Assembly: GCA_051294375.1 (NCBI GenBank)
Contig: CM119271.1
Coordinates: forward strand, 6,003,991 to 6,067,990
Direction: 5' to 3'
Length of the DNA stretch: 64,000 nucleotides
From: Paraspadella gotoi
Lineage: Eukaryota; Animalia; Chaetognatha
This document shows positions 5,858 through 64,000 of this stretch, one piece after another. Within the stretch, counting starts at the first letter, position 1. Each line of letters starts with the position of its first letter. The translations under genes were made by a program, and so were the position numbers. The notes below the pieces were generated by a model. It had not been told where the DNA came from, made no database searches, and was given only the letters and a program-made list of their open reading frames with translations.

Positions 5858-5962
<105 letters not shown>

Positions 5963-6200: not shown

Positions 6201-6258
<58 letters not shown>

Positions 6259-6308
6259 TCAGTAGATAGGCCCCGTCAGAATTAATTTTTACTGTGTATA
6301 AAGCGATT

Positions 6309-7772
<1,464 letters not shown>

Positions 7773-13500: not shown

Positions 13501-13578
<78 letters not shown>

Positions 13579-13850: not shown

Positions 13851-13905
<55 letters not shown>

Positions 13906-14439: not shown

Positions 14440-14546
<107 letters not shown>

Positions 14547-14982
14547 CCCCCCGAAATCTAGAAAAGAAAACGTACGAAAAGACCGGGGGTTTTTCCCGGT
14601 CAATCCAAATGTGAAAAGAAAAAAGTGAAACGAAGAACAAACTGTATAATATACGTATTATAAACTATTCATAAAGGAGTAGGGCGTTAGTATATTTAAT
14701 ATTTATATTCATATGATTAACGAAGCATTGCCAAAAATCACCTGGCCAAGCCGTTCTTTACTTAATATCTTGCATTAGTGTTAAATGTTTTAGATACTTA
14801 TTACTAATTGAAATTTAGAAAAAAATAAAAATAGCCGCTAGGTTATTATATATGAAAACGCTTATCCATAGATACCAACGTATCGTAAAAAAACAACAAT
14901 AATAACCATAAAATGGTTTTTTTGAAGGGCTTGGGTATTATTTTTACAACCGTAACCGAGAGAGAGAGTAAGAGAGAGAGAA

Positions 14983-15074
<92 letters not shown>

Positions 15075-23807: not shown

Positions 23808-26800
23808 TTAAGCCGTCTCCAAGACGGTTGACTGCTTATGGATTGACTTGTCCTCTCCATCAGGCGACACCAAGGTGGTGGTGATATCCGCACCGGATCC
23901 CCAGCTCGAGCTGCCGCGCCAAACGACCTGGAAGGGCGGGTCGTCGACTGCGTCGGCCACGGCCGCCCAGACCTTGATCGTGCCACCGCTGGGCATGACG
24001 AAGCCCACGGGGAACCTGTAGACGAGTGCGTCGTTGTTGTCGACTTTGCGGCGGAGGGAGAATCCGTCGAGACTCTGGTCCTTGCCCTTCTTGTTCTCCA
24101 GCATGACGAAGGTGCCGTCGGGGCAGCACTCCGTGATGGCTACGGGACCCTTGGAGGATCTCTGGAAGGTCTTCTTGGAAGCCATCTCGCTCTTGGTGAC
24201 CATGACCTGTTGAGAGGCTCCGCCGGCCGAGGCCATGGCGGAGCTGGATGAGCTCTGGACCAACATGCCGCCGCCGCCGCCGCCGCCCGCCGCGGAGAGG
24301 CCGGCGCCCGCCGTCGTGTCCCTCAGGCGAGATTCTTCTCCCATCAAGAGGCGCCTGTAGGTGGCGATCTCGGCGTCAAGAGCCAACTTGCTGTCCATCA
24401 GCTCCTTCAGTTCGAGGATCTGAGCCGCTAATTGAGCCCGGAGCCGTTCGATCTCTGCCGCCTGTTGGGGATTGTGACCGATACTGGTATTTTAGTATAC
24501 ACATTAATTTATAATTGTTGATTCTGAGGTTTCTTATATATTTGTTGCCAATTTTAATTGTTATCTCATTTCTTATAGTTGACAAATATTGCTGTAGGTT
24601 CACATAAATTTTGTCGTTAAAAATGAATGTATGATTTTCCTAAAGTAATACTAAATATTTTCTTATATCCAAACACTTCTTGATTCTTCCAAATTTTGTT
24701 TAAATTCGGAATTTTATAATTTATGGTAAAAGAATAGCAATTAAAAAATGAATACAATCAAGTATTATGGCTCAAACTCGTGTACCTGATCGTCCGAGGC
24801 AGCCTCCTGATTCTTGTTGAGGAATTCCAACTCGGCCTCCAACTGCGCCACCCTCTCCAGCAACTCGGCGTTGTTGGCTCGAAGTCGCGAGATCTCCGCC
24901 TGCAGCTCCGAATATTTGGCGCGCGCGCGTTTGATCTCCTCTTTCGACTCGACGAGCTCTTGACCGGAGCGTTGAGACGTCGTCAGCATTTCGTTGAATT
25001 TCGCCTTTGAAGAGGAAAAGAGAGGAACAGGGTGAGAGAAAGAGCAGAGATACCTGGAAAAGGGAATGATAAAATGATGGGAGAGGTGCGGTTCTTAAGG
25101 GAGCTGGGATTTTTATCGTAGCTGACTGTTTGGGGACATCTTATACACTGTACAGTGTACACAAAGTAATTATTATTTTATTTTCATTTTTCTCAATTTA
25201 TCACCTAAATTTAAACGTTCAAGTTGTTTCTTATTGCTTTCATTCGTTGTCATTGGTTTTTTTTGTCTTCGCTTTCCAACATTGTTATTGCAATAAGGCA
25301 TATGCCTTTAGTTATGCATTTCCAAGCTCATTATTTGTGGACTGCAAGTCTACAGATATCTGACGCCCTTACGATTCTCCATTCCTCTCACCTTGTACCA
25401 CGAGTCCGTGTCGGCGCCCTTCTGCGACTCCAAGATAGCGTCGTATTCGGCGCGAATGTCCCTCAACGCCAAGGCCAACTCGTTGGAGAACATCGTCCTC
25501 CAGTCTTCCGAATCGAAGTTCATGTCCATCAGCTGGAAAAAGGAAGCTCGAAATTCAGCAACAAATCGGACAAAAAATCCAAACACGCTCATTCTTCGAT
25601 CTACTTTTCCGAAAGCGCCCCAATTCAGCCAAAATTTTTAATTAGGGGGTTTAAGGTTTAGTATTAGAAGATAAGGATTAGAATTAATGATTAGGTTTTG
25701 ATATTAAAGATTAAGTTAGCGTTAAAAATGAGTTTAAACATATTATTAAAAAATATTAGGGTGAAGAGACAGTAATTATTGTTATGTGTTAGTGATAGAA
25801 CCGTTCAATATAAGCAGTCCCTGAGCTTTGGATCAGGCTGTAACACCATGTTACAGGCGGGTTAAGCGCCCCGTCCCTCTTAACTGCCAGACGACCATCG
25901 GGCTAGAACCCCGGACCTTGGGGTTGGGAGGCGAATGACTTGCCTCCGGCACCAATGGCCGCTGATGAACAGTTGGTGGATTTTAGTTCACCATACATCC
26001 CCCCCCCGTAGGGAGAAGTCTGTTACATCTCTTCAGTGAATTGTTGTTGTTGGTGGAAAGTTCGTCACCAAGTTGAGGCATATCGCCTGATGTGTTGTGG
26101 GCGGAAAGTGCATCGCCAGGTTAAGGCATGTCGCCTGAAAGTGTTGTTGTTGCTGTTGTGTTCGGAAGTCGGGCTTACCAATGAAGAAACAGTAATTATT
26201 GTTATGTGTTAGCGATAGAACCGTTCAATATAAGCAGTCTCTGAGCTTCGGATCAGGCTGTAACACCATGTTACAGGCGGGTTAAGCGCCCCGTCCCTCT
26301 TAACTGCCAGACGACCATCGGGCTAGAACCCCGGACCTTGGGGTTGGGAGGCGAATGACTTGCCTCCGGCACCAATGGCCGCTGATGAACGGTTGGTGGA
26401 TTTTAGTCCACCATAAGGGTTAATTTTTAGATTTAAAATTAGGTTCAGGTATTACGAACAGAAATGAGCGCTTTCGGAAAATAGAGCCCATTCTCCCTCA
26501 CCTGACGAATCTTCTCCTCGTACATGTTCCTGAGAAAGTTAATCTCATCGTCTTTGGTCTGCACCATGGATTCGAGCTCGATGCGCGCCACGATCTCGGC
26601 GTCGGCCGCAGTCTTCGAGTCGCGGAGGTCGCGTTGGCTGCGCGCCAAGTCTCCCTTTGCGCGCGCGCACTCTCGCTCCAACGCGTCCACGGTTTTGGTG
26701 AGGTATTCGATCTGGGCATCGCGTTCCGAGATTCCCTTTTCTAAGGCAGGGAGGCGTTCCTGTGGTTTGGTTGTTTTTCGGTCTTTGTTTATTTTTAAAA

Positions 26801-28595: not shown

Positions 28596-29092
28596 NNNNN
28601 NNNNNNNNNNNNNNNNNNNNNNNNNNNNNNNNNNNNNNNNNNNNNNNNNNNNNNNNNNNNNNNNNNNNNNNNNNNNNNNNNNNNNNNNNNNNNNNNNNNN
28701 NNNNNNNNNNNNNNNNNNNNNNNNNNNNNNNNNNNNNNNNNNNNNNNNNNNNNNNNNNNNNNNNNNNNNNNNNNNNNNNNNNNNNNNNNNNNNNNNNNNN
28801 NNNNNNNNNNNNNNNNNNNNNNNNNNNNNNNNNNNNNNNNNNNNNNNNNNNNNNNNNNNNNNNNNNNNNNNNNNNNNNNNNNNNNNNNNNNNNNNNNNNN
28901 NNNNNNNNNNNNNNNNNNNNNNNNNNNNNNNNNNNNNNNNNNNNNNNNNNNNNNNNNNNNNNNNNNNNNNNNNNNNNNNNNNNNNNNNNNNNNNNNNNNN
29001 NNNNNNNNNNNNNNNNNNNNNNNNNNNNNNNNNNNNNNNNNNNNNNNNNNNNNNNNNNNNNNNNNNNNNNNNNNNNNNNNNNNNNNNNNNNN
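28596..29092. other. Assembly gap (497 N); other gaps at 15682-15706, 32021-32030, 32263-32287, 42686-42710
   Basis: Runs of n in the sequence. Confidence 1.
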
Positions 29093-29123
<31 letters not shown>

Positions 29124-31338
29124 TTGGGAGAGATTAAATTGGTCACGGTAAACATGGCTGGATTGGTTGGGTTAAAAAAAAAATAGATGTAGAAATAAAA
29201 AAACGTGAGTCGTAGTTTTTCAGAGTAATCATTGAAGAAAGGACCTTAGCTTATATTTGAATTGCTTTCATCCTTTGCTTGCCGTAAAAAAAAATTAGGA
29301 ATGTTATTCTTAAAGTTTTATTTCTATTAATGTAAAATAAATAAAATAAAATAAAATCAATAAATAAAATAAATAAAACGGATTCTATTTTAAATCTGAG
29401 GTGTAATCTCTCTCTGTTTTTCTAACACTCTCTTTCTCTCTCTCTCTCTTTGACTGCCTGGTTGACCCAGACGAAACTATGAGGGTTCGTCGTCAACATT
29501 AATTAAAATAATCCGGCGCCGTTGTTGTTGCTGTTGTCGTTGTTGTTTTCTCGTCCTCGTCGTTTATCAAAAAAATTCGTTGATCTTCGCCGTCGAGTCA
29601 TCGTCGATCGTTAAAACTGAAAAGACGACAGATTTTAGTTTTTTTGTTCTTCATTTTTTAAATCCTTTCTTATTCATCTCTCCCTCTCTCTCTCTCTCTC
29701 TCCCCCTCTCTTCCTCTCTCCCTTCATCTCTTCATAGTGCCGTATTTCTTTAAAGAACGTTTTTATCATTTATCTTTAGACTTTACTTGACGTGTCTTTA
29801 ATTTTCTCTCTCTCAAAAAAAAAAATCCTTAAACCAAACATTCTATACATACATTTCTTTCTCCTTTCTTTTTAAATCCAGCCTCCTCCTTTAAACGTGA
29901 AAAAACGTCCTCTCCATCGAAGGGATGGCATCACCCTCAGAAAAATGTCGCAAATTGGATGGCAAATTGGATGGCATCACTCTCAGAAAAATGTCACAAA
30001 TTAAAACGAGTTTACTGATTCTAACATCTCTGTGTCTTTTACTTCTTTTTTTAATTTTTTAAGTCTTTTACAGTATAAATCTAAGTTTTGAAGAGACAGT
30101 AATTATTGTTATATGTTAGTGACAGTCCCTGAGCTTCGGATCAGCCTGTAACACCGTGTTACAGGCCTGTTAGGCGCCCCGTCCCTCTTAACTGCGGGCT
30201 AGAACCCTGGACCTTTGTGTTGTGTTGACGAATGATTTGCCTCCGGCACCAATGGCCACTGATGAACGGTTAGTGGATTTTAGTCCACCAGTTTCTTGAA
30301 ATTCTGCATGATGCATTTTACAACAAAATTCTTTCAAGAGTTTTTTTATTTTTTCTTTTTGTTGCAAAAAATAAAACAAAAAAGAAAATGAACTGAACTT
30401 CGTCTCTTTAATAACTGCTCACAATGTATGGTTTTCCAAGGTTATATTTTCTTAGTCAGTTAAAAGGTTTTCCAAAATATTATTTAAAAAAAATGAAACA
30501 AACCAGAAACTCAGTCTTAACTTTTTTTTTTCACTGTAGAACAAAGAATTTCATTGTGAATCGTCATTCGAAAAATTCGTGAGTCTAAATTGAAAAGGAA
30601 GTGAAATCCGGAGGATGAGAAGAAAACGCCCGAATCTTCTTTGTACAGGCGATTCAAAAAAAAAGAGTGAAAGGATACATAAAATGCATATTGCATACTG
30701 CAAATAATACACAGATAATGCCAATATGGCGCCCGAGAAAGCGGTGGATCTCACTTGTTGACGTTACAGATCAATGATATTAACTGTCGCGGTTTAACAC
30801 GCACTGTCACGCTTCGCCAACAAAGCCGGAGACCTCCGGGAATAAACCCGGAACTCTCAAATAGTGGGTTAGACTACCGGTTTGTGGCGATTCCGTGGCC
30901 AATGGAAAAAGTCATTTTCCCTCCCATGACTGTTGAGCATGTCAAGGTGGCCAGCTCGCCGTGATTATAAACTGTTATTTAACTATGTAAAAAATGCATC
31001 ATGTTGATTTCGTCGATTGCTCTCTGAATCGCCGGATCGGTCTACAGTCGGCATGCTGACTTCCTTCAGATGCCCTTGCCGCTCGGAGGTCAGACCGACG
31101 CTTTCGAAAAGGGCGTCGCGAAAATTGAGCTGTTGTATGTCATAAAAAAATTGACTTGTATGTAAGAATATTGAATTTTTTAAAAAAACTTTTATTTGTC
31201 TTTTTTTTAACGTTTTCGACTTTGAAGGAATAAAAATGTTTGGTTCGGTTTTTTGATCGCGCGCGATCGCTCGCATTGAGAACGATGAGCGAAGTGAGAG
31301 AAGAATACGAGAGAGAGATAGACAAGAGAGAGATTTAA

Positions 31339-31371
<33 letters not shown>

Positions 31372-33095
31372 GAGAGCAGAGAGAGATCGGTGAGCGGTCT
31401 TAAACGAGGCCTACCATTTTTACGTAGCCTCAGGCAAAAATTCATCATCGCTGTATCATTACATTTTCCCCTCCTCCTCATTCTCCTCCATCTTGGCTAC
31501 CAAAACCTTTTTTTCTTGTTTTTGTGTAATTTTGTATTTTTGTTTTTTTTATTTTTTTGAGGAGAAAATTATTTTTTGTACCAACACCGATTTCATAATC
31601 TAATTTTTTTGAGGCCCGGTAAACGGCGATTCATGGGCTCCTACCGCCGTCCCGCCCCAAATCCTACAGGGTGTATTCAAAGTGTTACCAAAAGTATGAA
31701 TAGTGAAAAGTACGTATTTTCTGAAAAAAAACTTTTTTTCTTAACTATGTAATGATAAAAAGAAATATCCTCTTCAAATAACTTTTCTGAGAAATATAAA
31801 TTAAATTATTCCATCAAACATATATTGAATTAAATTAAAATTATTTCAATTTCATTTATAGTTTTTTTTTATTCAATTTTTATTCAAGCCTATGTGTACA
31901 AAATGTACAAATGTGTGCACATACACATAGTTTCTCTGACTCACGTCTCAAATTAAATGTCTTAAATTGTCTCACTCCCCTTCCTTAGAAATCAACTCTA
32001 TCTCTCCCTCACTTCTCCCTNNNNNNNNNNTTTATTCAAGCCTATGTGTACAAACTGTACAAATGAGTACACATAGCTTCTCTGACTCACGTCTCAAATT
32101 AAATGTCTTATATTGTTTCACTCCCTTTCCCTAGAAATCAAATCTATCTCTCCCTCTCTTCTCCCTCTTTCCTTTATCCTCGTTCTCAGATAACGGAAAC
32201 AGATAAACTCGAATTATTCCCCTGAGTTCGATTGTAAAAAATCGTAATCTGAAATAATAAAGNNNNNNNNNNNNNNNNNNNNNNNNNCAAAACTGAAACA
32301 ACGCTTTTGTCCATCAAGGCAATAAATGTTTCTTGTTGATAGTGAAGTTCATTTCTTTCTTTTAATTCTGCTTTATTATTTCAGATTACGATTTTTTACA
32401 ATCGAACTCAAGGGAATAATTCGAGTTTATCTGTTTCCGTTATCTGAGAACGAGGATAAAGGAAAGAGGGAGAAGTGAGGGAGAGATAGAGTTGATTTTC
32501 TAAGGAAGGGGAGTGAGACAATTTAAGACATTTAATTTGAGACGTGAGTCAGAGACAACTATGTGTAACACATTTGTACATTTGTACACATAGGCTTGAA
32601 TAAAAAAAATAAAGATAAATGAAATTGAAATAATTTTAATTTAATTAATTCAATATATGTTTGATGAAATGTTTAATTTATATTTCTCAGAAAAGTTTTA
32701 TCGACTACTGAGTATTCTTAAGTACATATTTAAGTGACAAAGAAGTTTTTTTTCAGAAAAATAACGTACTTTTCCAATTCATACTTTTTGTAACACTTTG
32801 AATACACCCTGTAGGATTTGGGGTGGGACGGCGGTAGGAGCCCATGAATCGCCGTTTACCGGGCCTCAAAAAAATTAGATTATGAAATCGGTGTTGGTAC
32901 AAAAAATAATTTTTCTCCTCAAAAAAATAAAAAAAAAAAAAATACAAAATTACACAAAAACAAGAAAAAAAGGTTTTGGTAGCCAAGATGGAGGAGACAT
33001 GAGGAGGAGGGGAAAATGTAATGATACAGCGATGATGAATTTTTGCCTGAGGCTACGTAAAAATGGTAGTGCCTCGTTTAAGACCGCTCACCGAT

Positions 33096-33165
<70 letters not shown>

Positions 33166-35111
33166 ATCTCTCTCTCACTTCCTCATCCGTTCTCCAATGC
33201 GAATTCAATGCGAGCGATCGCGCGGCGATCAAAAAAACCGAACCAAACATTTTTATTCCTTCAAAGTCGAAAGTTAAAAAAAAGACAAATAAAAGTAAAA
33301 AATTCAATATTCTAACATACAAGTCAATTTTTTTATGACATACAACAGCTCAATTTTCGCGACGCCCTTTTCGAAAGCGTCGGTCTGACTCCGAGCGGCA
33401 AGGGCATCTGAAGGAAGTCAGCATGCCGACTGTAGACCGATCCGGCGATTCAGAGAGCAATCGACGAAATCTACAACATGTACTAATGCAAATTTTTTAC
33501 ATATTTAAAATAATAGTTTATAATCACGGCGAGCTGGCCATCTTGACATGCTCAACAGTCATGGGAGGGAAAATGACTTTTTCCATTGGCCACAGAATCG
33601 CCACAAACCGGTAGTCTAACCCACTATTTGAAAGAGTTCCGGGTTTATTCCCGAGAGGTCTCCCGCTTTGTTGGCCAAGCCTGACAGTGCGTGTTAACCG
33701 CGACAGTTAATATCATTGATCTGTAACGTCAACAAGTGAGATCCACGCTTTCTCGGGCGCCATATTGGCATTATCTGTGTATTCTTTGCAGTATGCAATA
33801 TGCATTTTATGTATCCTTTCACTCTTTTTTTGAATCGCCTGTTACAAAGAAGATTCGGGCGTTTTCTTCTCATCCTCCGGATTTCACTTCGTTTTCAATT
33901 TAGACTCACGAATTTTTTCGAAATGACGATTCACAATGAAATTCTTTGTTCTACAGTGAAAAAAAAAGCTTAAGACTGAGTTTCTGGTTTGTTTCATTTT
34001 TTTAAATTAATATTTTGGAAAACCTTTTTAAACTGACTAAGAAAATATAACCTTGGAAAACCATACATTGTGGCAGTTATTAAAGAGACGAAGTTCAGTT
34101 CATTTTCTTTTTTGTTTATTTTTTGCTTTGAAAGAATTTTGTTGTAAAACGCATTATGCAGAATTTTAAGAAACTTTAGATTAGATACTGTAAAAGACTT
34201 AAAAGATAAAAAAAGAAGTAAAAGACACAGAGATGTTAGAATCAGTAAACTCGTTTTAATTTGCGACATTTTTCTGAGAGTATCATAATTGCATCCATTC
34301 ACATTCGAATGAGAGAGAGGACATTTTTTCACGTTTAAAGGAGGAGGCTGGATTTAAAAAGAAAGGAGAAAGAAATGTATGTATAGGAATGTTTGGTTTA
34401 AGGATTTTTTTTTTTGAGAGAGAGAGAAGATTGAAAGACACGTCAAGTAAAGTCTAAAGATAAATGATAAAAGCGTTCTTTAAAGAAATACGGCACTTTG
34501 AAGAGATGCAGGGAGAGAGAGAAGAGAGGGGGTAGAGAGGGAGAGAGCAGCAGAGAACAGAAGAGATGAATAAGACAGGATTTAAAAAAATCCGTCGTCT
34601 TTTTCAGCTTTAACGATCGACGATGACTCGACGAGCGAAAGATCAACGAATTTTTTTGATAAACGACGAGGACGAGAAAACAACAACGACAACAGCAACA
34701 ACACGGCGCCGGATTATTTTAATTAATGTTGACGACGAACCCTCATAGTTTCGTCTGGATCAACCAGGCAGTCAAAGAGAGAGAGAGAGAAAAAGAGAGT
34801 GTTAGAAAAACAGAGGAGATTACACCTCAGATTTAAAATAGAATCCGTTTTATTTATTTTATTATTGATTTTTATTTTATTTTATTTATTTTACATTAAT
34901 AGAAATAAAACTTTAAGAATAACATTACTACTACTATTTTTTTTTTACGCAAGCAAGGATGAAGCAATTCAAGATATAAGCTAAGGTCCTTTCTTCAATG
35001 ATTACTCTGAAAAACTACGACTCACGTTTTTTTATTTCTACATCTATTTTTTTTTTAACCGGGCAGCACCAATCCAGCCATGTTTACCGTGACCAATTTA
35101 ATCTCTCCCAA

Positions 35112-35140
<29 letters not shown>
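29093..35140. repeat. Inverted duplication with ~3 kb arms centred on the gaps at 32021-32287
   Basis: atgcttgggagagattaaattggtcacgg at ~29120 is the reverse complement of ~35085-35115, and homology continues to the centre; arms differ by substitutions and indels. Confidence 0.95.
30089..30290 (-). mobile_element. Solo LTR of the 25762 family with degenerate twister (30123-30195)
   Basis: TGAAGAGACAG...TAGTCCACCA flanked by GTTT on both sides; absent from the other arm (empty site at 34171-34174). Confidence 0.9.
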
Positions 35141-35155
<15 letters not shown>

Positions 35156-35364
35156 CCTCCTCTCTTCCCTCTCTCTCTCTCTCTCTCTTCTTCTTCTTTT
35201 TTTTTTTTCCGTTCTCATTTTTTCTTTTTCGACCCGGTTTTTTCTTCTTCTGTCTCTCTCCCTCTCTCTCACTTTATCTCTCTCGGTCTCTCTCTCTTCT
35301 CTCTCATACTTTTTTCTCCGTTCTCCTTTTTCATTTCCCCCCGGTTTTTTTTTCTTCTTCTTCT

Positions 35365-35395
<31 letters not shown>

Positions 35396-35405
35396 GTCTC
35401 TCTCA

Positions 35406-35436
<31 letters not shown>

Positions 35437-38400
35437 CTCTCTCTCTAATTTTACAGTTTTCTCACTCTTTTTTTTCCCGTAACGACGACGACGACGTACA
35501 TGACAAGTTAACCTTTTATAAAGTTGTCGTTGTACAATGAAGTAGGAAACAAAATTGTTTTGATTATCACCTTTTAAAATTATTATGCTTTTTGTCTCTC
35601 TCCAACCCCAGTATCATTTTGGAAAACAACAGCCATAGATTTTCACAAATGAGAAAAACCTGGTATAGAAAAACCTAATGTATCTGCTATAGCATTTAAA
35701 TACTTTTTGTAACAAAATTAAATCCAAGCCTTGAGAAAAAGAGAGATTGAAAGAGTGATATTCCGCATTTCCAAACGACTTTCAGGTGTGGGATGTTAAA
35801 CTAACACTCACTCTCAGTGACTGAAACGAATGTGAAAAAAAAAAAATTTTCTTGAGAGAATTTTTTTTCCTCTCTCTTTTCTGTCCGCGATAAATCATTC
35901 ACAAGGGGGGAAAATGAGCGAGTTTGTATAAACAGAAAAAGAAAAGCTTTTTTTTCCCTCGATTTAAGCACAAATATAGAAGAAAAAAAAATACTAGTTA
36001 GTTTTAAACAAATTTTTGTAACAAAAATTTTAAGCGGTCACCAACTCTCGATTTGAAAAGAGGAGAAAATTTAAAAACCGAATGACGAATTAAGGAATAA
36101 TTAAAATAATAATAATAATAATAATTAAAATAGTTAAAATCTTCCCATCCCCCCCCCCAAAAAAAACCTCGAGACTCGAATTTGTTTTTCTGTTTTGTTT
36201 GAGAAGAAACAGAAGCCGGCGAAAATTCAAAGATGAGGTTTTCTGGGCGATCGAGTGTATCGCATCTCCAAACAATGCATGAGTAACGGGCGACGGCCTT
36301 CGAAGGCGGAACGACCCGAAGAGAAAATTCGAGCAACGCCCTCAAAAACTGAAAAATCATTCAAAACTCGATACTTTCAATGATAATAAAAAAAAAGCAT
36401 TGCCTTGGTAAAGTTATAGCAACGATCATAAAATCGCTACAATTAAAATAAAAATTATCCGTTGATTCGAACCAAATTGATTGGGCTATGGTGGGTAATT
36501 GCCTAAGTCTCTAGCAAGAAAACAGCATGGCAAAACCCTAAAAACTAAAGTTAATAATAGGTTAAATACGTATTAGTGAATGATTCCGACAGTCAAATTC
36601 GTTTCTTTACAGTTGCGACATGCAACTTCAAGCTTGAATAACAGGCTTTGCAATCGTAAAAAAACTTTTCCTCATTTGAAAAAAAGACTGTTTCGCAGAA
36701 AATACCAAATATTTTTAGTTTGCCACACTGCATGTAAAAAAAACTATCTTATCAATACTTCGTATCAACGACCGAATTAAAAAAAAAGAAAGAAAAAAAA
36801 AAAGAAAAGAAAAAAAGCGTTCGATCGTCCATTATGGGATCGACGATCGCGGGGCGTCGTCGTCGTCGTCGGTTTCTTCCGCCACATTTTCGTCGTCTTT
36901 ATCGTCGTCGGTTTTGGCTCCCGAATCAATTTCCCGGTGATTAATTCGAAGGGGGGGGCGGGGGGCGGGTGAGTGAAAGAAAGGAGGCGGGAGAAGATGA
37001 GGTGGCGACGCGAGATTACTTCGGAGGAGATGAGGCGGAAGCGAGGATGGGTCGACCTTTTTTTTCTAAATGGGTGAGTCTGACCCCGAAGGCGAAGGGA
37101 CTGTGAGCGAAGATCGTCTATTGGGCGCCCGGCCGAGAATGGGAGGGGAGCAATCTCCGCCCCGGTGCGGAGTGGGAGGGGGGCAATCGGGGCAATCGGG
37201 CAATCGGGCTCTCCTGGCGGGAGAGAGAGCGTGAAGAGACGGTCGTAAAGATCTCGCAAGGAAAGGCGAAAATCTTTGGTCTTGGATTAAAAAGTAAAAA
37301 CAACGAAACTTATGTTTTCTTCGAAATAAGAAACAAAAAACATACGTACTATATATCTGAACGTTGTATGTAAATAGTTAGTAGTTTATTGATACTTAAT
37401 TCAGATTTTTTAGAGTTTGGTGAGTTTTATGTACTTTGCTGGTTAATACAACTACAGTTTGTTCCATTATCAAATTTACTAGCGAGGAAAAATATAGTAA
37501 GCTACAAGGTCAACAATACTATTATTAGTATTAATACTATCAACTATTACGACAAAAGGAGCCATGATACAATGGGACCAACAAGCCACAGTGAGTAATG
37601 TTTAAATCGCTCATGTTTTTTTCAAAACATATAGTGAACAATAAAAGTACTTCAATATTAAACGATAAAGAGCGAGAGGTCAGAAACTAGAAATAAGGAA
37701 AAAAAATGGCGAAACAGGAAAATAAAGGAGAAATAAAGGAAGGCGGAGAAAAAGGGGGGAGAAAAATAAACGGGGGGGAAATGTAAATTTTTTTTAAACG
37801 AAACTGAGCGATGAAGCGAAATCGAGAAAGTAAGATGGAAAAACGCGCGAAAAATCGATGACCGAAGCAAAAAAAAAAAAAAAAAAAAAAAAACGAGATA
37901 AGATTTACGTATTTTCGTTACGTTGTTTTTTTAATTTTATAGCAATTAGACAATTTTTTTAAAATATGTTTTTCTTGCTTACCTCTTACCCGCGATGCTG
38001 ATGTTTTTTAAAACTTGTAACGTTGTAAAAACAGTAAAATTACAAAAACAGAATTTGTTTCTCGCTCATGTACTCTCTGCATGTGTGTGTGTGTGTCACT
38101 CTTTCTCTTTCTCTCCTTTTTTTCTCTCTTTTTTTTTTTTTTTTCTAAACGGCCAAATTTCTCAAATGAAACGTAAATAATAAATTTTTATTCTTTCTAA
38201 ATTATTAAACAAAAAGAGTGAATGAAATTCCTCAATGAAAAAAAAAGAAAAAGAAAAAAAAAAACAAAGAAAATAAAACAAAAGAAAAACGTTTCATTTT
38301 AATTCAAAGCCTGATATTTTACGGATGAGTAATTTCGATAAAAAATCGTATTGTAGAAGGCATTTCATTTAGGTTTACATGAAATTTTAGTGCCTCACGG

Positions 38401-38919
38401 ATAAGACAAATTTATTTATTAAGCGGTTTGCGTCCGCCTTAGCATTGGCCACTGCACGATGGGGCGCCAAAACGAGGCGGGTCAAGAGAACCTTTATGAA
38501 CCAATTAGAAAAGATTCACAGGTTCTCTCTTTTTGAAATGCAATAAGTTAACAGTAAGGAGATCACCAGGCCATCAGGGCGGTTAGGCGTCAAACCAGTT
38601 ATTTGCCACAACCGGAGACAATAAAAATCGCTCTGTGAAATAGTAAAGATCGAAAATGACATCGTGTTTTGCCTTTCGGAAAAATATTTATCAGGACGAG
38701 GACGAAGAAGTCACGTCGTTCGACGAGCCTGAAAATTTTTGCTCGTTTAAATAATTAATTAATCGACCCACCCCCCGCATGTATTCGTATAGTTCTATTG
38801 ATAAGTTACACTCGTCGAAACATCAATTAATAGTGAGATATTAGTAAGATTAAAGGAAAATGCAGAGTTTAGAACTGTGAAGAAATAAATGTTAAAAGTC
38901 GAAGGCGCTTGTTTTTTCA

Positions 38920-40135
38920 TTTATGTTTCATATTTATCGTGCCGTCGACAGGTTTAGTTATTGCCCCCAAAAATCATTATGTATGTAACTCTCTTATGTT
39001 TCCCTGCTGTTTTTATAGCAAAAAGGTTTTCGAACCTTCGCGTAAAACGCACAAATTCAGAAATGCAGCGCCCGCGTAATCGACAAATTAAGAGAAATTT
39101 TAAATCGTTACAAAAAATTTTAAAAACTAATATTTTCAAGTATCCTAAAATTGTCAATGCGACGAGGGATATTGCTACCCAGATATGAAACGCCATTCGA
39201 TTCTTGAATATGTTTCATATTTATCGTGCCGTCGACAGGTTTAGTTATTGCCCAAAAAAATTTATTATGTATGTAACTCTCTTTATGTTCCCTTGCTGTT
39301 TTTATAGCAAAAAGGTTTTCGAACCTCGCATAAAACGCACAAATTCAGAAATGCAGCACCCGCCGGAATCGAACGATTAAAAGAGATTTTAAATTGTTTC
39401 AAAAAATTTTAAAAACTAATATTTCAAGTATCCTAAAATTGTCAATGCGACAAGGGATATTGCTACCCAGATATGAAACGCCATTCCGATTCTTGAATAT
39501 GTTTCATATTTATCGTGCCGTCGACAGGTTTAGTTATTGTCCAAAAAATTCATTATGTATGTAACTCTCTTATGTTTCCTTGCTGTTTTTATAGCAAAAA
39601 GGTTTTCGAACCTTCGCGTAAAACGCACAAATTCAAAAGCAGCGCCGCGGAATCGACGAATTAAAAGAGATTTTAAATTGTTTCAAAAAATTTTAAAAAC
39701 TAATATTTTCAAGTATCCTAAAATTGTCAATGCGACGAGTGATAGTGCTACCCAGATATGAACGGCATTCGCTACCTGAGGTGCTTATAACCATTTCCAT
39801 TCTTGAATATGTTTCATATTTATCGTGCCGTTGACAGGTTTGTTATTGCCCAGAAAAGTTCATATGTATGAATTGGTACAACCAATATAAAAATTATATG
39901 TATGTAACTCTCTTATGTTTCACGGCTGTTTTTAAAGCAAAAGGTTTTTGAACCTTCGCGTAATCGACGAATCGACGAATCAATAGAAATTTGAAATCGT
40001 TTTAAAAAATGTAAAAAAACTAATATTTACAAGTATCCTAAAATTGTCAATGCGACGAGTGATATTGCTACCCAGATATGAAACGACATTCGCCGCCTTG
40101 AGGTGCTTTTAAAACCATTTCCAGATTCTTGAATT
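38920..40135. repeat. ~290 bp tandem repeat, about 4 units
   Basis: tatgtttcatatttatcgtgccgtcgacaggtttagttattg recurs every ~290 bp. Confidence 0.93.
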
Positions 40136-40857
40136 GCCGAAGGCCGATCGCCGCCATAAACGTCAAAGATCATTCAACCAGATGACGGGATAAGTTAGTT
40201 TATTTTACTTTTATTTTTTTAAATTGTTCTTTCGGTTTTTCCCACAACTAAACTCACCGTTTTCCTATTTTACTTTTATCATTTAGTCTTATTTGTTTGT
40301 TTATTTTTCATCGATTATATCAAAATCTCGATCATTTGTTGCTTTTTTTAATTGTTTTATTATTTTTTTTTTTCGCTTTATACGTAGTCGACGTTATGTC
40401 CTATTATCTCACAGTCGGAATCTCTCGAGAAAAAAAAAACCTTCAAACATGTCGTTTCCCTTTTTTTCGCGCTCTCCAAAGCCGAGGAATATCGATCGAG
40501 GCGCCCTCTCCTAACCGCAGCCTCACACCTCGACGCGAAGACGATCTGGTCGCTGCGCCGTCACGTTTTGGTCGAAATTTATCAGGGAGTGCGAATTCAT
40601 GTAACGCTGAGGGCTGAGCCATTACTATTATAAGACAAAGATAATAATTGAAATGAAAAAAACGGTAACAACATCTGTTTTACTTGACTGATAAAAAAAA
40701 CTACAACTCATCGCATTACATAAAATTTACATTATCCTATATCTTCATCTAAATTCTCATACAGTAAGGCTTCGCAAAGCATGCACACTCGTTTCTGGTA
40801 ATGCGCTTGCCACACCAAAACACTCTGGCTTCCACTTTCTAATCTCCACGCCAAGAT

Positions 40858-42660
40858 TCAATTGGTGTTGAGCATAAGACACACCCTTGCAGGATCCAAT
40901 GGCTGGAGTGTTCGGTCTAAAGAGGTCGGCTTCGAAAACGAGACCGACTCCCATAGCGTTTCGTCGGTCGGAAGTGGTGTAGACCGGAGTACGAAGAGTG
41001 TTCTGTAGGAAAAGAGAAAATGAGTACCTTTGTTATATTCTGATTAACTCTACTTAGTACTTAATACAAGGGAAATACTTTTTTTTTGACTGTTCGGTAT
41101 TTGATAAGATAAGATATGCGTTTTTTTTCGTTCACAACAAATTTTTTGAAAAAGAACATTCAATATTCCATTACACACACAAAAAATAATTGCATTAATT
41201 GATTTTTTTACAATTCAAAACAATGTAAATAATAAAATTAACGAAGCATAGGTAACCCCAGCCCCCCCAAAAAAATTGAGTTAACTACGTATAATCAGCT
41301 AAATGACTAAATTTTATAACGCAATTTAATTTAGTACAACTGAAACATCGTCACAATTCTCACCTTCTTCTCACTTTTATTATTACTATTTTCGTCTTCT
41401 ACACCACTTCAGAGATAGGGAGGCCAAGTACTCTGGGAGTGAATACACGAGACTGTGAGAGAGTCTCGATTGAAAGCTTGCAGTATCCTGCTATGTTATT
41501 ATTCTGTAAGAGTGATGTCCGAAGTCACGGAAAATATTTATAGAAGATTTATTGAATGAATGAATAATTTTATATTTCAATTTCATAATAAGAAATACAT
41601 GAGTCTTCCATTTTTAAATATCATAAGTCGGAAAATCATATGTCATATATCATATGTCACTTTGCTGTCATTTGACTATAAAATAATATAATAAATATAT
41701 TAAATAATCAATCGTGCGCATCAGAGACCTTTTATATGTATTATTATGTTGTGTCATTGAATCTTTCATTGAAATGGCTAAATTTAGTATTCTTCAAATA
41801 AGAATTTAAAATTTTTTTATCTTAATTTTATTCAAAATCCGTGCAAAACAAAGCACCTGCAATTTGAGACGATGACTTCGATCGGAATGACTCTTGAGGA
41901 TGGGCAGCTCCTTTATCAGCTCCTTGGGTAGGGATCTCTCCAACCCCCCAATCGCGTAGTTCCATCCTGCGCCTTCCAAGTAGAGTCCGCGACGTATGAC
42001 CTAATAGAAAAAATATGAGTGTGATTAATCGCTTAAAGATTCTCGTAAAAGGGCTGAAATAAGGAATAAGGTTTTTTCAAAATAATTTAGAAAAAACATG
42101 TCGTTATTATTGTTTCAAATAAATCGTTGTTGAATTCATTTCAAACTTTTCTCTTAAATCTCAACCGCAACGAAACGAAGGATTATAATGTCTACAAAAT
42201 AATTATTCTGAACGGAGTCATTTAAAGTGTTTACAATTTTAAAGAAGGGACATGTTTTTAAGAAAAAAAATTGTTCAGTAAAAAAGTAACATTAATCCAA
42301 ACGCAGTATTTTACACAAATATGCAAATGAGATTTAGGGGACATAAGTGAGGCTGATGTTATAACATTATGATAAGACTGTGGAGTACGATGTTATGTAA
42401 AGTTGTGTGAGAGTTAGCAGGGGACGAGCGCCGTGTGATAGATCGCACGTCAAAATTTCACGAGTACCCGAGCTGGCGATCGTTCTTGAATCTCATCCGC
42501 CGTCGAGAACTGCGGTCCGGAAGTGGTACAGTCCGTCGACTGTGGAGAGCGCAATCCGGTCGTCGACGAGTCATGCTGTGGAGGGTGATGGGGGAGGGTT
42601 GCGCGAAGCGCTGTCTCGGAGACGCAGGCTCGTGTGCTGTGGAGCGCGTGCGTAATCCGA
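40858..42660 (-). pseudogene. DNAH10: Duplicate of the last three DNAH10 exons (probably redundant assembly)
   Basis: Contains [22 protein letters not shown] and GLYLEGAGW-type sequence with frameshifts; 42466-42660 is highly degraded. Confidence 0.6.
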
Positions 42661-43768
42661 GGTGAGGTCTCGTCTCTTTGGTGGGNNNNNNNNNNNNNNN
42701 NNNNNNNNNNAAAAAAAAAAAAAAAAAAACGAGATAAGATTATACGTATTTTCTGTTACGTTGTTTTTTTAATTTTTTTATAGCAATTAGACATTTTCTT
42801 TTAAAAATATTGTTTTTCTTGCTTACCTCTTACCCCGCGATGCTGAATGTTTTTTTAAAACTTGTAACGGTTGTAAAAACAGTAAATTACAAAAACAGAA
42901 TATTGTTTCTCGCTCATGTACTCTCTGCATGTGTGTGTGTGTGTCACTCTTTCTCTTTCTCTCCTTTTTTCGCTTCTTTTTTTTCTAAACGGCCAAATTT
43001 CTCAAATGAAACGTAAATAATAAATTTTTATTCTTTCTAAATTATTAAACAAAAAAGAGTGAATGAAATTCCTCAATGAAAAAAAAAGAAAAAGAAAAAA
43101 AAAACAAAGAAAATAAAACAAAAGAAAAACGTTTCCATTTAAATTCAAAGCCTGATATTTTACGGATGAGTAATTTCGATAAAAATCGTATTCGTACGAA
43201 GGCATTTCATTTAGGTTTACATGAAATTTTAGTGCCTCACGGATAAGACAAATTTATTTATTAAGCGGTTTGCGTCCGCCTTAGCATTGGCCACTGCACC
43301 GATGGGGCGCCAAAACGAGGCGGGTCAAGAGAACCTTTATGAACCAATTAGAAAAGATTCACAGGTTCTCTCTCTTTTGAAATGCAATAAAGTTAACAGT
43401 AAGGAGATCACCAGGCCATCAGGGCGGTTAGGCGTCAAACCAGTTATTTGCCACAACCGGAGACAATAAAAATCGCTCTGTGAAATAGTAAAGATCGAAA
43501 ATGACATCGTGTTTTGCCTTTCGGAAAAATATTTATCAGGACGAGGACGAAGAAGTCACGTCGTTCGACGAGCCTGAAAATTTTTTGCTCGTTTAAATAA
43601 TTAATTAATCGACCCACCCCCCGCATGTATTCGTATAGTTCTATTGATAAGTTACACTCGTCGAAACATCAATTAATAGTGAGATATTAGTAAGATTAAA
43701 GGAAAAATGCAGAGTTTAGAACTGTGAAGAAATAAATGTTAAAAGTCGAAGGGCGTGTTCATATCATT

Positions 43769-44996
43769 TATGTTTCATATTTATCGTGCCGTCGACAGGT
43801 TTAGTTATTGCCCCCAAAAATTCATTATGTATGTAACTCTCTTATGTTTCCCTGCTGTTTTTATAGCAAAAAGGTTTTCGAACCTTCGCGTAAAACGCAC
43901 AAATTCAGAAATGCAGCGCCCGCGTAATCGACAAATTAAGAGAGATTTTAAATCGTTACAAAAAATTTTAAAAACTAATATTTTCAAGTATCCTAAAATT
44001 GTCAATGCGACGAGGGATATTGCTACCCAGATATGAAACGCCATTCTGGATTCTTGAATATGTTTCATATTTATCGTGCCGTCGACAGGTTTAGTTATTG
44101 CCCAAAAAAATTTATTATGTATGTAACTCTCTTATGTTTCCCTGCTGTTTTTATAGCAAAAAGGTTTTCGAACCTTCGCATAAAACGCACAAATTCAGAA
44201 ATGCAGCACCCGCGGAATCGACGAATTAAAAGAGATTTTAAATTGTTTCAAAAAATTTTAAAAACTAATATTTTCAAGTATCCTAAAATTGTCAATGCGA
44301 CAAGGGATATTGCTACCCAGATATGAAACGCCATTCCGGATTCTTGAATATGTTTCATATTTATCGTGCCGTCGACAGGTTTAGTTATTGTCCAAAAAAA
44401 TTCATTATGTATGTAACTCTCTTATGTTTCCTTGCTGTTTTTATAGCAAAAAGGTTTTCGAACCTTCGCGTAAAACGCACAAATTCAGAAATGCAGCGCC
44501 CGCGGAATCGACGAATTAAAAGAGATTTTAAATTGTTTCAAAAAATTTTAAAAACTAATATTTTCAAGTATCCTAAAATTGTCAATGCGACGAGTGATAG
44601 TGCTACCCAGATATGAAACGGCATTCGCTACCTTGAGGTGCTTTTAAAACCATTTCCTGATTCTTGAATATGTTTCATATTTATCGTGCCGTTGACAGGT
44701 TTAGTTATTGCCCAGAAAAGTTCATTATGTATGAAATTGGTACAACCAATATAAAAATTATATGTATGTAACTCTCTTATGTTTCACGGCTGTTTTTAAA
44801 GCAAAAGGTTTTTGAACCTTCGCGTAATCGACGAATCGACGAATCAATAGAAATTTGAAATCGTTTTAAAAAATGTAAAAAACTAATATTTACAAGTATC
44901 CTAAAATTGTCAATGCGACGAGTGATATTGCTACCCAGATATGAAACGACATTCGCCGCCTTGAGGTGCTTTTAAAACCATTTCCAGATTCTTGAA
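43769..44996. repeat. ~290 bp tandem repeat, about 4 units (second copy)
   Basis: Same unit; ORF track shows near-identical peptides at a 290 bp period. Confidence 0.93.
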
Positions 44997-45721
44997 TTGC
45001 CGAAGGCCGATCGCCGCCATAAACGTCAAAGATCATTCAACCAGATGACGGGATAAGTTAGTTTATTTTACTTTTATTTTTTTAAATTGTTTCTTTCGGT
45101 TTTTCCCACAACTAAACTCACCGTTTTCCTATTTTACTTTTATCATTTAGTCTTATTTGTTTGTTTATTTTTCATCGATTATATCAAAATCTCGATCATT
45201 GTTGCTTTTTTTAATTGTTTTATTATTTTTTTTTTCGCTTTATACGTAGTCGACGTTATGTCCTATTTATCTCAAGTCGGAATCTCTCGAGAAAAAAAAA
45301 ACCTTCAAACATGTCGTTTCCCTTTTTTTTTCGCGCTCTCCAAAGCCGAGGAATATCGATCGAGGCGCCCTCTCCTAACCGCAGCCTCACACCTCGACGC
45401 GAAGACGATCTGGTCGCTGCGCCGTCACGTTTGGTCGAAATTTATCAGGGAGTGCGAATTCAATGTAACGCTGAGGGCTGAGCCATTACTATTATAAGAC
45501 AAAGATAATAATTGAAATGAAAAAAACGGTAACAACATCTGTTTTACTTGACTGATAAAAAAAACTACAACTCATCGCATTACATAAAATTTACATTATC
45601 CTATATCTTCATCTAAATTCTCATACAGTAAGGCTTCGCAAAAGCAATGCACTCGTTTCTGGTAATGCGCTTGCCACACCAAAACACTCTGGCTTCCACT
45701 TTCTAATCTCCACGCCAAGAT

Positions 45722-48700
45722 TCAATTGGTGTTGAGCATAAGACACACCCCTTGCAGGATCCAATGGCTGGAGTGTTCGGTCGTAAAGAGGTCGGCTTCG
45801 AAAACGAGACCGACTCCCATAGCGTTTCGTCGGTCGGAAGTGGTGTAGACCGGAGTACGAAGAGTGTTCTTAGGAAAAGAGAAAATGAGTACCTTTGTTA
45901 TATTCTGATTAACTCTACTTAGTACTTAATACAAGGGAAATACTTTTTTTTTTGACTGTTCGGATATTTGATAAGATAAGATATGCGTTTTTTTCGTTCA
46001 CAACAAATTTTTGAAAAAGAACATTCAATATTCCATTCACACACACAAAAATAATTGCATTAATTGATTTTTTTACAATTGAAAACAATGTAAATAATAA
46101 ATTAAAGAAGCATAGGTAACCCCAGCCCCCCCAAAAAAAATTGAGTTAACTACGTACAATCAGCTAAATGACTAAATTTTTATAACGCAATATAATTTAG
46201 TACAACTGAAACATTCCTTGAAAAATTATACTACTTCAGAGATAGGGAGGCCAGGTACTCTGGGAGTGAATACACGAGACTGTGAGAGAGTCTCGATTGA
46301 AAGCTTGCAGTATCCTGCTATGTTATTATCTTGTAATAGTGATGTCCGAAGTCACGGAAAATATTTATAGAAGATTTATTGAATGAATGAATAATTTTAT
46401 ATTTCAATTTCATAATAAGAAATACATGAGTCTTCAATTTTTAAATATCATAAGTCGGAAAAATCATATGTCATATATCATATGTCACTTTGCTGTCATT
46501 TGACTAATAAAATAATATAATATAATAATATAATAATCAAGTCGTGCAATCAGAGACCTTTCTATATGTATTATTATGTTGTGTCATTGAATCCTTTCAT
46601 TGAAATGGCTAAATTTAGTATTCTTTCAAATAAGAATTTAAAATATTTTTTTATCTTAATTTGATTCAAATCCGTGCAAACAAAGCACCTGCAATTTGAG
46701 ACGATGACTCTCGATCGGAATGACTTTGAGGATGGGCAGCTCCTTTATCAGCTCCTTGGGTAGGGATCTCTCCAACCCCCCAATCGCGTAGTTCCATCCT
46801 GCGCCTTCCAAGTAGAGTCCGCGGACGTATGAACCTAATAGAAAAAAATATGAGTGTGATAAATTCGCTTAAAGATTCTCGTAAAAAAGGGCTGAAATAA
46901 GGAATAAGGTTTTTCAAAATAATTTAGAAAAAACATGTCCGTTATTATTGTTTCAAATAAATCGTTGTTGAATTCATTTCAAACTTTTCTCTAAATCTCA
47001 ACCGCAACGAAACGAAAGGATTATAATGTCTACAAAATAATTAGATTCGAACGGAGTCATTTAAAGTGTTTACAATTTTAAAGAACGGGACATGTTTTTA
47101 AGAAAAAAAATTGTTCAGTAAAAAAGTAACATTAATCCAAACGCAGTATTTTACACAAATATGCAAATGAGATTTAGGAACTTATAACATTATAACATTA
47201 TGTAACTTATTACATTATGTAAATTCTTTAATTAAGACTAGGAGAGCGCGCTATAATCCGTCAAAATTGTCACGTACCCGAGTGCGATCGTTCTTGAATC
47301 TCATCCGCCGATCGAAACTGCGTCACGGAAGTGTACAGCGTCGACTTGTCGAGAGGCCAACCGTTTCGTCGACACGTCGCTTGCACCAACGCTGTCAGGA
47401 ACGACTCTGGGATGTGGAGGCCGGAAAGCCAGATGACCGCCGGTTCGCCTTCGATCACCTAGAAGGAACGAGACGGGATTTTCTCTCTCTCTCTGTTTCG
47501 CTGAAGTTTAAATAAACGAGTTGCGTCCACACGAGCCCCTTATCAAATTTTTTACCTCATCGAGTTAAGGGATCAATAAACCCTTACAGCAACAAGACTA
47601 CTTTTCGACAGCACATTTTTTTCCCTTCAGTTCCATTAGTTTAATATATTTGACCTTTAAAGAGTTCTGAACATTAGGCTTTTCTTCCTAATTTTTTTCT
47701 TTTAAATTTTCAATATTTCTTTAATGTTTAATAAGTGGAAGGAGTGAAATGGGGTGGGCCTTAAAAATATTAATAAAAGCAGCATGAGTGTTGACGGTTT
47801 TTTCCTTAAAGTTTCCCCAGAAACAATTTTTTTAGGTTTTCCATTATCAGTTACTACAGTATAAATTTCTTTTAAATTGCTCGTACCACTCTTAAATTTT
47901 TATTCGTCAAACAAAAGAGGTAAGTTTAATAATAACGCTGTCTTTGGTCTTTAAGTTTTAAAATTTATTAAAGATTTTTGAATGATTAAATTTTACAGCA
48001 TCATTTGCAGCATCAGCAGCATTTACAGCATCATAGTTGATCGGCTCACATTGATACAAAATAATTAAACTACTTCATGATAATTTGAAACCGACCGCAA
48101 AAAGAAAAATGGTCACAATTTTTTTTCAAAATAGTCCTGCGATATTATTCCCTTTCTTCCAAAACTAGAGTAAACTAAACATAATGACATAATAAGAAGT
48201 CACGATATGTATATTAAGGTGGATCGAGTAAGGAGTTAAGGTTTACCTCTCGGTTATTTCGTTACTAGTCATGGACGAGAATGAAAATATAAAACTGTGG
48301 CGAATCCTAAATTCGACTCCCGTATAGCTTGGTGAAACTCAGCTCGTCCCTTTGGCTTGGACAGCTAAGTAGTAAGTACTCATTCACCAACCGTGAGTTC
48401 CGGGTTCGATCCCCTCACGGTCACGCTGGTTAAAGTGTGATGGTGTCGGCATAAACACGCCAGAGATATGGTGAGGTCACTGCAGGTCCAAAGCCCTGAG
48501 TGCCAGCTGTTGGGAGATGCCTGACACCCCAGGCATCATACATGTCCCTCCGTTGCCATAAAACTAACTTTTTATAACTATTACACACATTAGGCATTTT
48601 TAACTATATGCAAATTATAATATGCAAATGAGATTAAGATACATAATTTAATTTAATTAATTTAATTCGATTTTTTTTCTTTCTCCTCTTTATGTTCCTC

Positions 48701-62450: not shown

Positions 62451-63099
62451 CTGACCGAGACAAACGTCGTTGTCATTCTTATCAATAAATGTTTAGTACT
62501 TTTTTTTTTATCACTAAGATTTTTCGAAGATTTTTTACGTATATCGTACATATATATATATCGTTTACAAGATTCTAAATGATTTCAATAAAGATGAGTA
62601 ATGCTCTCCAGCATGGTTGAAAACAAAAAGATGTGGCACAGCTTAAAGCTGCTCAGCTGGCTGTCCGTCCCTCAGGCCCTCGTCTCAATGGTGAGCAGGC
62701 TAAATCTATTATATCCGATCCTGCGTTGCGTCGGTTAAATCCCTGGGTATTCGCGTTCTGGCTTAAATGTGACGGTGCGGTATGGAAATGCAGTGACAGG
62801 AGCGGTGCAGGTAGGGTCCGCAGCCCTACGCCAGTGGTGAGATACGGCCTGGCCCACGCGGTATCACAGGCTATCCTCCCGTTGCCCATAATATAATATA
62901 TATATATCGTTTACAAGATTCTAAATGATTTCAATAAAAGATGAGTAATCTCTACCAGATGGTTGGAAAACAAAGAGTGTGGCAGCAAGACTAAAGCTGC
63001 CTCACTGCTGTCCGTCCTCAGCTCGTCTCAATGCGTAGCAGGCCTAAATCATCTCATTCCATCCGTGCGTCCCGGGTTCAATCCCTGGTATCCCGGTTT

Positions 63100-63180
63100 C
63101 TGGCTTAAATGTGACGGTGCCGGTATAAACATGCCAGTGACAGGAGGCGGTTCACTGAGGGTCCGCAGCCCCTACGCCAG
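63100..63180 (+). ncRNA. Twister ribozyme, type P5 (array unit 2)
   Basis: CUGGC UUAA AUGU GA CGG UGCCGGUA UAA ACAU GC C[P3]G AGGG UCCGCAGC CCCU AC GCCAG; predicted cut 63126/63127. Confidence 0.85.
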
Positions 63181-63443
63181 TTGGTGAGATACCCCGCGCC
63201 CCGGTATCACAGGCTATCCTCCGTTGCCATAATATTATATATATATATCGTTTACCAGATTCTAAATGATTTCAATAATAAGACGAGTAATCTCTACCAG
63301 ATGGTTGGAAAACAAAAGAGTGTGGCAGCAAGACTTAAAGCTGCCTACTGCTGTCCGTCCTCAGCCTCGTCTCAATGGCTGAGCAGGCTAAATCATCTCA
63401 TTCCATCCGTGCGTCCGGGTTCAATCCCCGGGTATCCCGTGTT

Positions 63444-63524
63444 CTGGCTTAAATGTGACGGTGCCGGTAATAAACATGCCAGTGACAGGAGGCGGTCACT
63501 GAGGGTCCGCAGCCCCTACGCCAG
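63444..63524 (+). ncRNA. Twister ribozyme, type P5 (array unit 3)
   Basis: As unit 2 with perfect P3 CAGUGAC/GUCACUG and one extra A next to P1; units 1 (62758-62834) and 4 (~63810-63892) are noisier. Confidence 0.75.
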
Positions 63525-64000
63525 TTTGTAGATACCGCGCCCCGGGTATCACAGGCTATCCTCCCGTTCCATAAATATGATATATATATATATCGTTACA
63601 AATTCTAATGATTTTCAATAAAAGACGAGTAATCTCTACCAGATTGGTTGGAAGACAAAAGAGTGTGCAGCAAGACTTAAAGCTGTCCTCACTGCGTCCG
63701 TCCCAGCCTTCGTGCTCAATGGGTTGCTGGCTTCAGCAGCGCTCATATCATCTCATTCCGATTTCCGTGCGCGTCTCCGGGTTCATCCCGCGGGCTATCC
63801 CGGGTTCTCGGCTTAAATGTGACGGTTGCCGGGTCTACAAACATGCCAGTGACAGGAGGCGGTCACTGACGGTCCCGCAGCCCCTACGCCGAGTTGGTTG
63901 TATATTATCTTTCCCTGCCTTCTGGGTATCTACAGGCTAGTCCTCTTGTTGTTGCCATAAATTATATTATATATATCGTTTACATAGATTTCTAAATTGA

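Follow-up and report, generated by a model that had tools for sequence, protein, structure and literature searches.

Our preferred reading, held with moderate confidence and built on sequence comparison, is that a type-P5 twister lies in the LTR-like end of a high-copy noncoding TRIM and likely cuts its RNA in both LTRs, giving a unit-length RNA which would be circularised and reverse transcribed. The window, i.e., the whole 64-kb stretch of DNA that was analysed, contains four lineages with the motif. These are family A (the copy at 48425), family B (an array at 62550-64000), family C (minus strand, three LTRs) and family D (1772-1832, with a duplicate near 9230). The features of the family A locus are:

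48292-48295 (left) and 48561-48564 (right), plus strand: 4-bp target site duplication (TSD), from the sequence and an empty-site contig
48296-48560, plus strand: family A element, a 265-bp solo-LTR-like insertion with ends TG..TA, from contig ends and the empty site
48353-48413, plus strand: tRNA-derived promoter-like region with a box A-like motif (48353-48364) and box B (48403-48413), from motif match with 50-nt spacing
48425-48507, plus strand: type-P5 twister with P3, from Rfam alignment, descriptor and covariation; cut predicted at U48452/A48453
48444-48451, plus strand: P1 segment, a fully self-complementary 8-mer and predicted dimer helix (duplex -9.5, hairpin +2.9 kcal/mol)
48516-48537, plus strand: hairpin 3' of the ribozyme, from sequence and minimum-energy folding, with a covarying counterpart in family B

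By alignment, the stretch 48425-48507 is a type-P5 twister in its stems, its two pseudoknots and its catalytic nucleotides; it has a P3 in addition, and cleavage is predicted. It reads P5 (6 bp), the linker UAAA, the 3' strand of P2, GA (48439-40), the 3' strand of T1, an 8-nt P1 segment, UAA (48452-54), the 5' strand of P2, GC, P3, P4, L4 and P5. A first-pass annotation of this DNA had proposed a functional type-P5 twister cleaved at 48452/48453, and both the type and the predicted site are supported by the Rfam alignment and the covariation. The stems P5 (GCUGGU/GCCAGC), P2 (GUGU/ACAC), T1 (UGG/CCA) and P4 (CAGG/CCUG) are present exactly as it had written them, and so are the GA, the UAA, T2 (GC/GC) and the L4 UCCAAAGC. 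Its P3 (CAGUGAC/GUCACUG) does not occur in this copy, where the stem is CAGAGAU/GUCACUG and contains a mismatch and a wobble; the quoted stem is that of family B and of most family A copies. Most family A copies are paired at both of the deviating places, and the mismatch is private to the copy at 48425. P2 and P4 have four of four pairs each, and the pseudoknots T1 (3 bp) and T2 (2 bp), which each covary between lineages, are Watson-Crick throughout. The chain ends in the 6-bp P5 with a pair probability of 0.96 in the isolated motif. Aligned to the Rfam consensus, the conserved nucleotides of L1 and L4 are present, including the catalytic G and the cleavage-site A, and the putative general base is G48439.

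The best of 4227 Rfam families on 48280-48580 was Twister-P5 (RF02684, clan CL00120) at 48435-48498, with 22.6 bits (E 0.0097) against a gathering score of 37.6. The Rfam alignment treats P3 as an insertion. At the gathering score no Rfam family matched in the whole window, with E up to 10 the motif at 48425 was absent from the whole-window output, and the family C motif gave no twister match in the Rfam search. The elements share with RF02684 the chain ending in P5, P2, P4, T1, T2, GA, UAA, L4 and the predicted cleavage between U and A. They differ from it by scoring under the gathering score, by a P3 that the Rfam model is without, and by a P1 cut down to a palindrome of 6-8 nt; in addition, P2 has 3 bp and a bulge in families C and D, the inner P4 pair is A-U in family C and T2 is AC/GU in family D. 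The Rfam P5 model misses motifs of this kind. The P4 pair that is A-U in family C is described as an essentially invariant G-C (PMC5408937), and natural twisters are reported to tolerate imperfections in P1, P2 and P4 and the A-to-C change found in family B (PMC11662667). In folding calculations that do not model pseudoknots, the nested twister fold of the 48425 copy (-16.5 kcal/mol) is 9.5 kcal/mol worse than the minimum-energy fold (-26.0 kcal/mol), P3 being unformed; the motifs of families B and C likewise have lower-energy nested alternatives when pseudoknots are not scored. The strand with the cleavage-site U (48448-48452) can pair with 48517-48521 on the 3' side of P5, and the latter segment can alternatively form a hairpin of its own, an option that covaries in family B; this choice of pairing is a possible folding switch.

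Three subfamilies had been claimed in the first-pass annotation. The first two sets, family A and the 344-nt array of family B (plus strand), stand as such with LTRs that are 66% identical; the third is family C (minus strand, 26307-26234, 25887-25814 and 30195-30122), a distant family whose LTRs are 55-59% identical to those of A or B. The stems given for this third set hold only in part, as its P2 is imperfect (a 3-nt 5' strand and a bulge in the 3' strand), one P4 pair is A-U, and two of the three window copies are broken, one in T1 and one in P2. The bulged 3-bp P2 is the norm in family C (no variant at 10% or above over 26307-26270 in the contig sets), and family D shares it with one pair compensated. 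The GCC and AGC said to be invariant are not, the fourth lineage at 1772-1832 having a compensated T2 (AC/GU). None of the four lineages has lost the catalytic G, the A of the cleavage site or either pseudoknot.

A descriptor independent of family has four matches in the window, and 1731 shuffled windows gave nine matches to the core, two to the core with P5 and none to the core with P5 and P3; with T2 left free there are five matches against eight in 1092 shuffles. These rates are somewhat flattering because the descriptor, which permits a bulged P2, was written after the copies had been seen. Covariation was counted on seven copies from the four lineages, from which the structure itself was derived. 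Only ten pairs lie in well-aligned columns; in these 68 of 70 cells are paired, seven of the ten pairs have double changes, none of 500 shuffles matches the score, and slid controls are 14-44% paired. P3, P5 and most of P2 were counted separately by coordinates. On that basis 25 pairs can be compared between families A and B, of which 18 are the same, two have a one-sided compatible change, four a two-sided change and one is broken. Two-sided changes are found in 9 of 21 pairs between B and C and in 9 of 14 between C and D. A neutral divergence of 20-31% would according to simulation break 6.6-9.4 pairs on average, and the chance of at most one broken pair is P 0.005 and 0.0001.

The idea that selection has kept the fold is borne out by this covariation between element lineages and not by the genomic copy at 48425. 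The latter differs from most family A copies at 12 of 265 positions; two of these differences lie in stems or core, where 3.1 would be expected. Selection acted on the source elements and is not visible at the 48425 locus. In contig set X6 a single high-depth contig over 48381-48481 has, at matching depth, changes in the catalytic G and in T1, which suggests an amplified dead subfamily. A pattern scan of viral contigs gave no match; seven matches in metagenome contigs, which all lack both the stems and any resemblance to the elements, were taken as chance.

The carrier of the motif was analysed by aligning public contig sets to the locus, using four of nine runs per comparison. The first-pass annotation had recognised neither the carrier nor the self-complementarity of P1. 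Loose contig ends number 77 at 48296 (contig set X1) and 28 + 20 at 48560/48561. A contig in each of the four runs joins 48291 to 48561 and skips 269 bases, which is the element of 265 plus the 4-bp duplication. The loose flanks of family A copies average to an ATAT-like site. In X1 the summed depth, which is not a copy number, is 1.1e5-7.8e5 across the element and 1.3e3-6.8e3 where the flanks are covered. Contig set X9, conceivably from RNA, resembles those from DNA and is uninformative on expression. Families A, B and C all have a GGTTC box B with a degenerate box A-like motif 42-50 nt upstream; ARAGORN finds no intact tRNA in family A, and we infer that the A/B-box region is used by Pol III. 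In the window and the contig sets family A was seen as a solo copy only, with no internal region, PBS or second LTR. Frames free of stops for 100 aa do not reach into either the A or the C elements. The copy at 48425 is a solo LTR in decay, and its cutting may be poor. The flanking segments 48200-48295 and 48561-48640 are themselves repeated about tenfold, mostly without the insertion.

The other families contribute the following features:

25762-26415, minus strand: complete family C TRIM of 654 bp with 5' LTR (26415-26182), internal part (26181-25996), 3' LTR (25995-25762) and 4-bp TSD
26168-26181, minus strand: family C primer-binding site (PBS), one base after the 5' LTR, 12 of 14 letters as in a tRNA-Trp PBS
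25999-26008, minus strand: family C polypurine tract (PPT), G-rich, ahead of the 3' LTR
30089-30290, minus strand: family C solo LTR with two internal deletions, a 4-bp TSD and a twister at 30195-30122
62550-64000, plus strand: family B array of about four head-to-tail units, each a 254-bp LTR-like part and an 89-bp spacer, in noisy sequence
1772-1832, plus strand: family D twister-like motif without P3, with a bulged 3-bp P2, a compensated T2 and a palindromic 6-nt P1

The complete family C element has one twister per LTR (26307-26234 and 25887-25814). Its LTRs are 234 bp each with 6/234 differences, and the internal part is 186 bp. The PBS was compared to the tRNA-Trp PBS of Gypsy-32_NVi and Helenus-2_SyJa. 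Summed depth in X1 is about 0.9e6-4.5e6 over the LTR, 0.4e6-1.1e6 over the internal part and 264 over the adjacent exon. Contig ends are found at 26182 and 26415/16, with ATAT-like flanks, and the empty site of the solo LTR is present in an inverted duplicate near 34170. An intron of an intermediate-filament gene contains the complete element in sense orientation, and the twisters, if active, would cut the pre-mRNA.

The LTR-like parts of family B (e.g., 62978-63231 and 63321-63573) carry twisters at 63100-63180 and 63444-63524, and the spacer terminates in a purine run and has no PBS. The array opens with a spacer, starts in (AT)n and runs off the window; it may be a real tandem or a product of noisy assembly. 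It adjoins dynein heavy chain exons of the opposite strand and is probably intronic. When family B is read as type P1, P2 and T1 do not work out, and this reading was dropped. In family D (1700-2005, plus strand; duplicate 9155-9463) the motif has behind it a diverged tandem copy that is truncated at its 5' end; the DNA is AT-rich. Neither box B nor TSD was seen at 1700-2005, and the family may belong to a Penelope-type element. Upstream parts related to it are found at 41429-41517 and 46256-46344; a 5S-like origin of the upstream part has no Rfam support.

The insertion features of family A and the complete LTR-PBS-internal-PPT-LTR order of family C make the carriers probable Helenus-like TRIM LTRs with a twister. 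Helenus/TRIMp3 elements are described as noncoding and below 1 kb, with tRNA-like A/B boxes in the LTRs, PBS, PPT, 4-bp TSDs and solo LTRs (Kojima 2024, PMC10886601), and a TA at one LTR end is also seen in published consensus sequences. Judged by sequence, family C has all Helenus features examined and family A all but the internal part. Animal Helenus are reported to have 4-bp TSDs and to depend on Gypsy (PMC10886601). A twister after the tRNA-like part is a feature of the elements here. In the supplement to PMC10886601 two gall wasp sequences, Helenus-2_SyJa-LTR and Helenus-2_SyUm-LTR, have by eye a complete type III hammerhead directly after the tRNA-like part; both have a Trp PBS, and the hammerhead loops 1 and 2 are complementary. 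The main text of that paper names a ribozyme in a reference only, and none in Helenus. Six twister L4 strings had no match in the supplement, where wrapped lines may hide matches.

We picture the replication of these elements as follows. Pol III would transcribe from the 5' LTR, and twister cleavage in both LTRs would release a unit-length RNA (420 nt for family C). This unit would be ligated into a circle by a host ligase, and reverse transcription primed by a tRNA would proceed across the junction. Integration would be of the Gypsy type, as modelled for plant retrozymes (PMC4918200).

By analogy the elements may work like the plant LTR retrozymes (Cervera 2016, PMC4918200). Common to both are a ribozyme in each LTR, PBS, PPT, 4-bp TSD, solo LTRs, tandem forms and a presumed Gypsy helper. 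The elements here differ by the animal host, a twister in place of the type III hammerhead, an internal promoter of Pol III type, a Trp-like and not a Met PBS, a smaller unit and weaker self-pairing; abundant circular RNA is described for the plant elements. The unit-length circles are predicted to be 53% and 57% paired (z -2.0 and -0.4), under the >70% of retrozymes (PMC4918200). An Rfam search of the window gave no hammerhead family, and because there is no hammerhead the elements are not members of the plant group.

The P1 segment is self-complementary throughout in all four lineages, over 8 nt in A and B and 6 nt in C and D, with predicted energies of -8.3 to -11.7 kcal/mol as duplex and +2.9 to +5.6 kcal/mol as hairpin. 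The copy at 48425 would form 2 bp as a hairpin and 8 bp as a dimer. Of the five descriptor matches four have a self-complementary P1 (the fifth has a one-base insertion), against none of eight shuffled matches; given the outer pairs, the chance of self-complementarity is 14%. Families A and B differ at two places in P1 and two family C variants at one, all compatibly. Since P1 can pair with itself and is not long enough for a hairpin to be stable, cleavage as a dimer, a domain-swapped double twister, is predicted, and the twister probably works as a pair through the palindrome. In Penelope elements, minimal hammerheads whose short stem III is palindromic are cleaved as dimers (PMC6765202). A dimer may be unnecessary because P1 is reported to be dispensable for cleavage in other twisters (PMC5408937, PMC11662667).

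An active twister in a Helenus-like LTR might also only trim the RNA, as a stand-in for a terminator or a limit to read-through, with transposition through linear RNA and no circle. This rests on the same anatomy and would fit the modest self-pairing of the predicted circle. A T-run after the tRNA-like part is present in most published Helenus (by eye) and in none of the LTRs here. T4 terminators are absent from 0.16-0.97 of shuffles too, and their absence here carries no significance. Against trimming, both LTRs have the same ribozyme, so that cutting of both would leave no terminal redundancy for strand transfer, and the palindromic P1 favours paired cutting. We regard trimming as unlikely.

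There is still less reason to regard the repeats as merely LTR-like parts of non-LTR elements, either SINEs with a tRNA promoter, such as Sm-alpha of schistosomes, or non-autonomous partners of Naiad-type Penelope elements. The family B array starting in (AT)n and the partial tandem of family D in AT-rich DNA do recall the Naiads, which are reported to target (TA)n, to form partial tandems and to have a non-autonomous relative that had at one time been taken for an LTR element (PMC8557442). Elements dependent on SINE or Penelope mechanisms are marked by 5' truncation, a variable TSD and a tail or microsatellite target, and families A and C do not fit this; the reading may yet hold for B and D. 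Families A and C have sharp 5' ends without 5' depth loss, the TSD is 4 bp at all three insertions with both ends in the window, PBS and PPT are present in family C, and the tRNA-like part begins some 55 nt into the element. Sm-alpha SINEs and animal non-LTR retrozymes resemble the elements here in tandem units and a short helix prone to dimerise, and Sm-alpha also in a tRNA-type promoter followed by a ribozyme; theirs are type I hammerheads, and LTR, PBS and PPT are lacking (PMC7761336, PMC6765202). The twister variants of Schistosoma Perere-3 (PMC8501958) likewise have a P3 and a weak P1 and reside in an animal retrotransposon, but they belong to type P1 and stand at the 5' end of a non-LTR element that is autonomous, with a P1 derived from the TSD, and not of type P5 inside an LTR.

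It is improbable that the fold persists as an RNA structure without cutting activity, e.g., a dimerisation or packaging signal for helper particles. The palindromic segment would suit such a role, LTR retrotransposon RNAs being reported to dimerise through palindromes, and deviations from the consensus in P2 and P4 characterise family C as a whole. Against such a role, both pseudoknots as well as the catalytic G and the A of the cleavage site persist in every lineage. Chance pairing in a repeat or an assembly artefact, which the noise and the duplicated segments of the window might suggest, is refuted for families A and C by the shuffle tests and by independent contig sets that contain them, and has next to no probability.

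The preferred reading, cleavage in both LTRs followed by circularisation, can be extended to a more general model in which animals have true LTR retrozymes that are driven by Pol III, depend on Gypsy and form circles, the class of ribozyme being exchangeable and the twister an obligate dimer. This extension is drawn by analogy, and we put it forward tentatively, as conceivable rather than probable. If it is true, the exchange would be between the twister here and the hammerhead in gall wasps, and the dimer mode would apply outside the hammerheads for which it has so far been described. Reviews describe animal retrozymes as being without LTRs, PBS and PPT, and one review announces work in preparation on insect elements with type III hammerheads. 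The open-access papers and preprints covered did not describe a twister within any LTR or TRIM element, nor a twister that is dimeric in nature's own sequences; such elements may already be contained in Repbase or in unpublished work. Few roles are known for eukaryotic twisters, the one study being of a non-LTR element. A TRIM present in an animal at high copy number, with a twister per LTR, would offer a direct test of the role of a ribozyme in retrotransposition. It suggests how an LTR element driven by Pol III could replicate without terminator or terminal redundancy, and it predicts twister cleavage that depends on dimers.

The window encodes intermediate filament, ATG8 and dynein heavy chain domains, which show the host to be an animal, and 18734-19333 (minus strand) is an apparently single-exon reading frame of the ATG8/LC3 family. 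Tandem arrays of 288-290 nt at 38922-40100 and 43769-45000 have no relation to the twister elements. At 624-15134, 28600-35500 and 38500-47200 there are large duplications, both direct (spacing 7.45 and 4.85 kb) and inverted, with indel noise; they are likely to be uncollapsed haplotypes or assembly artefacts.
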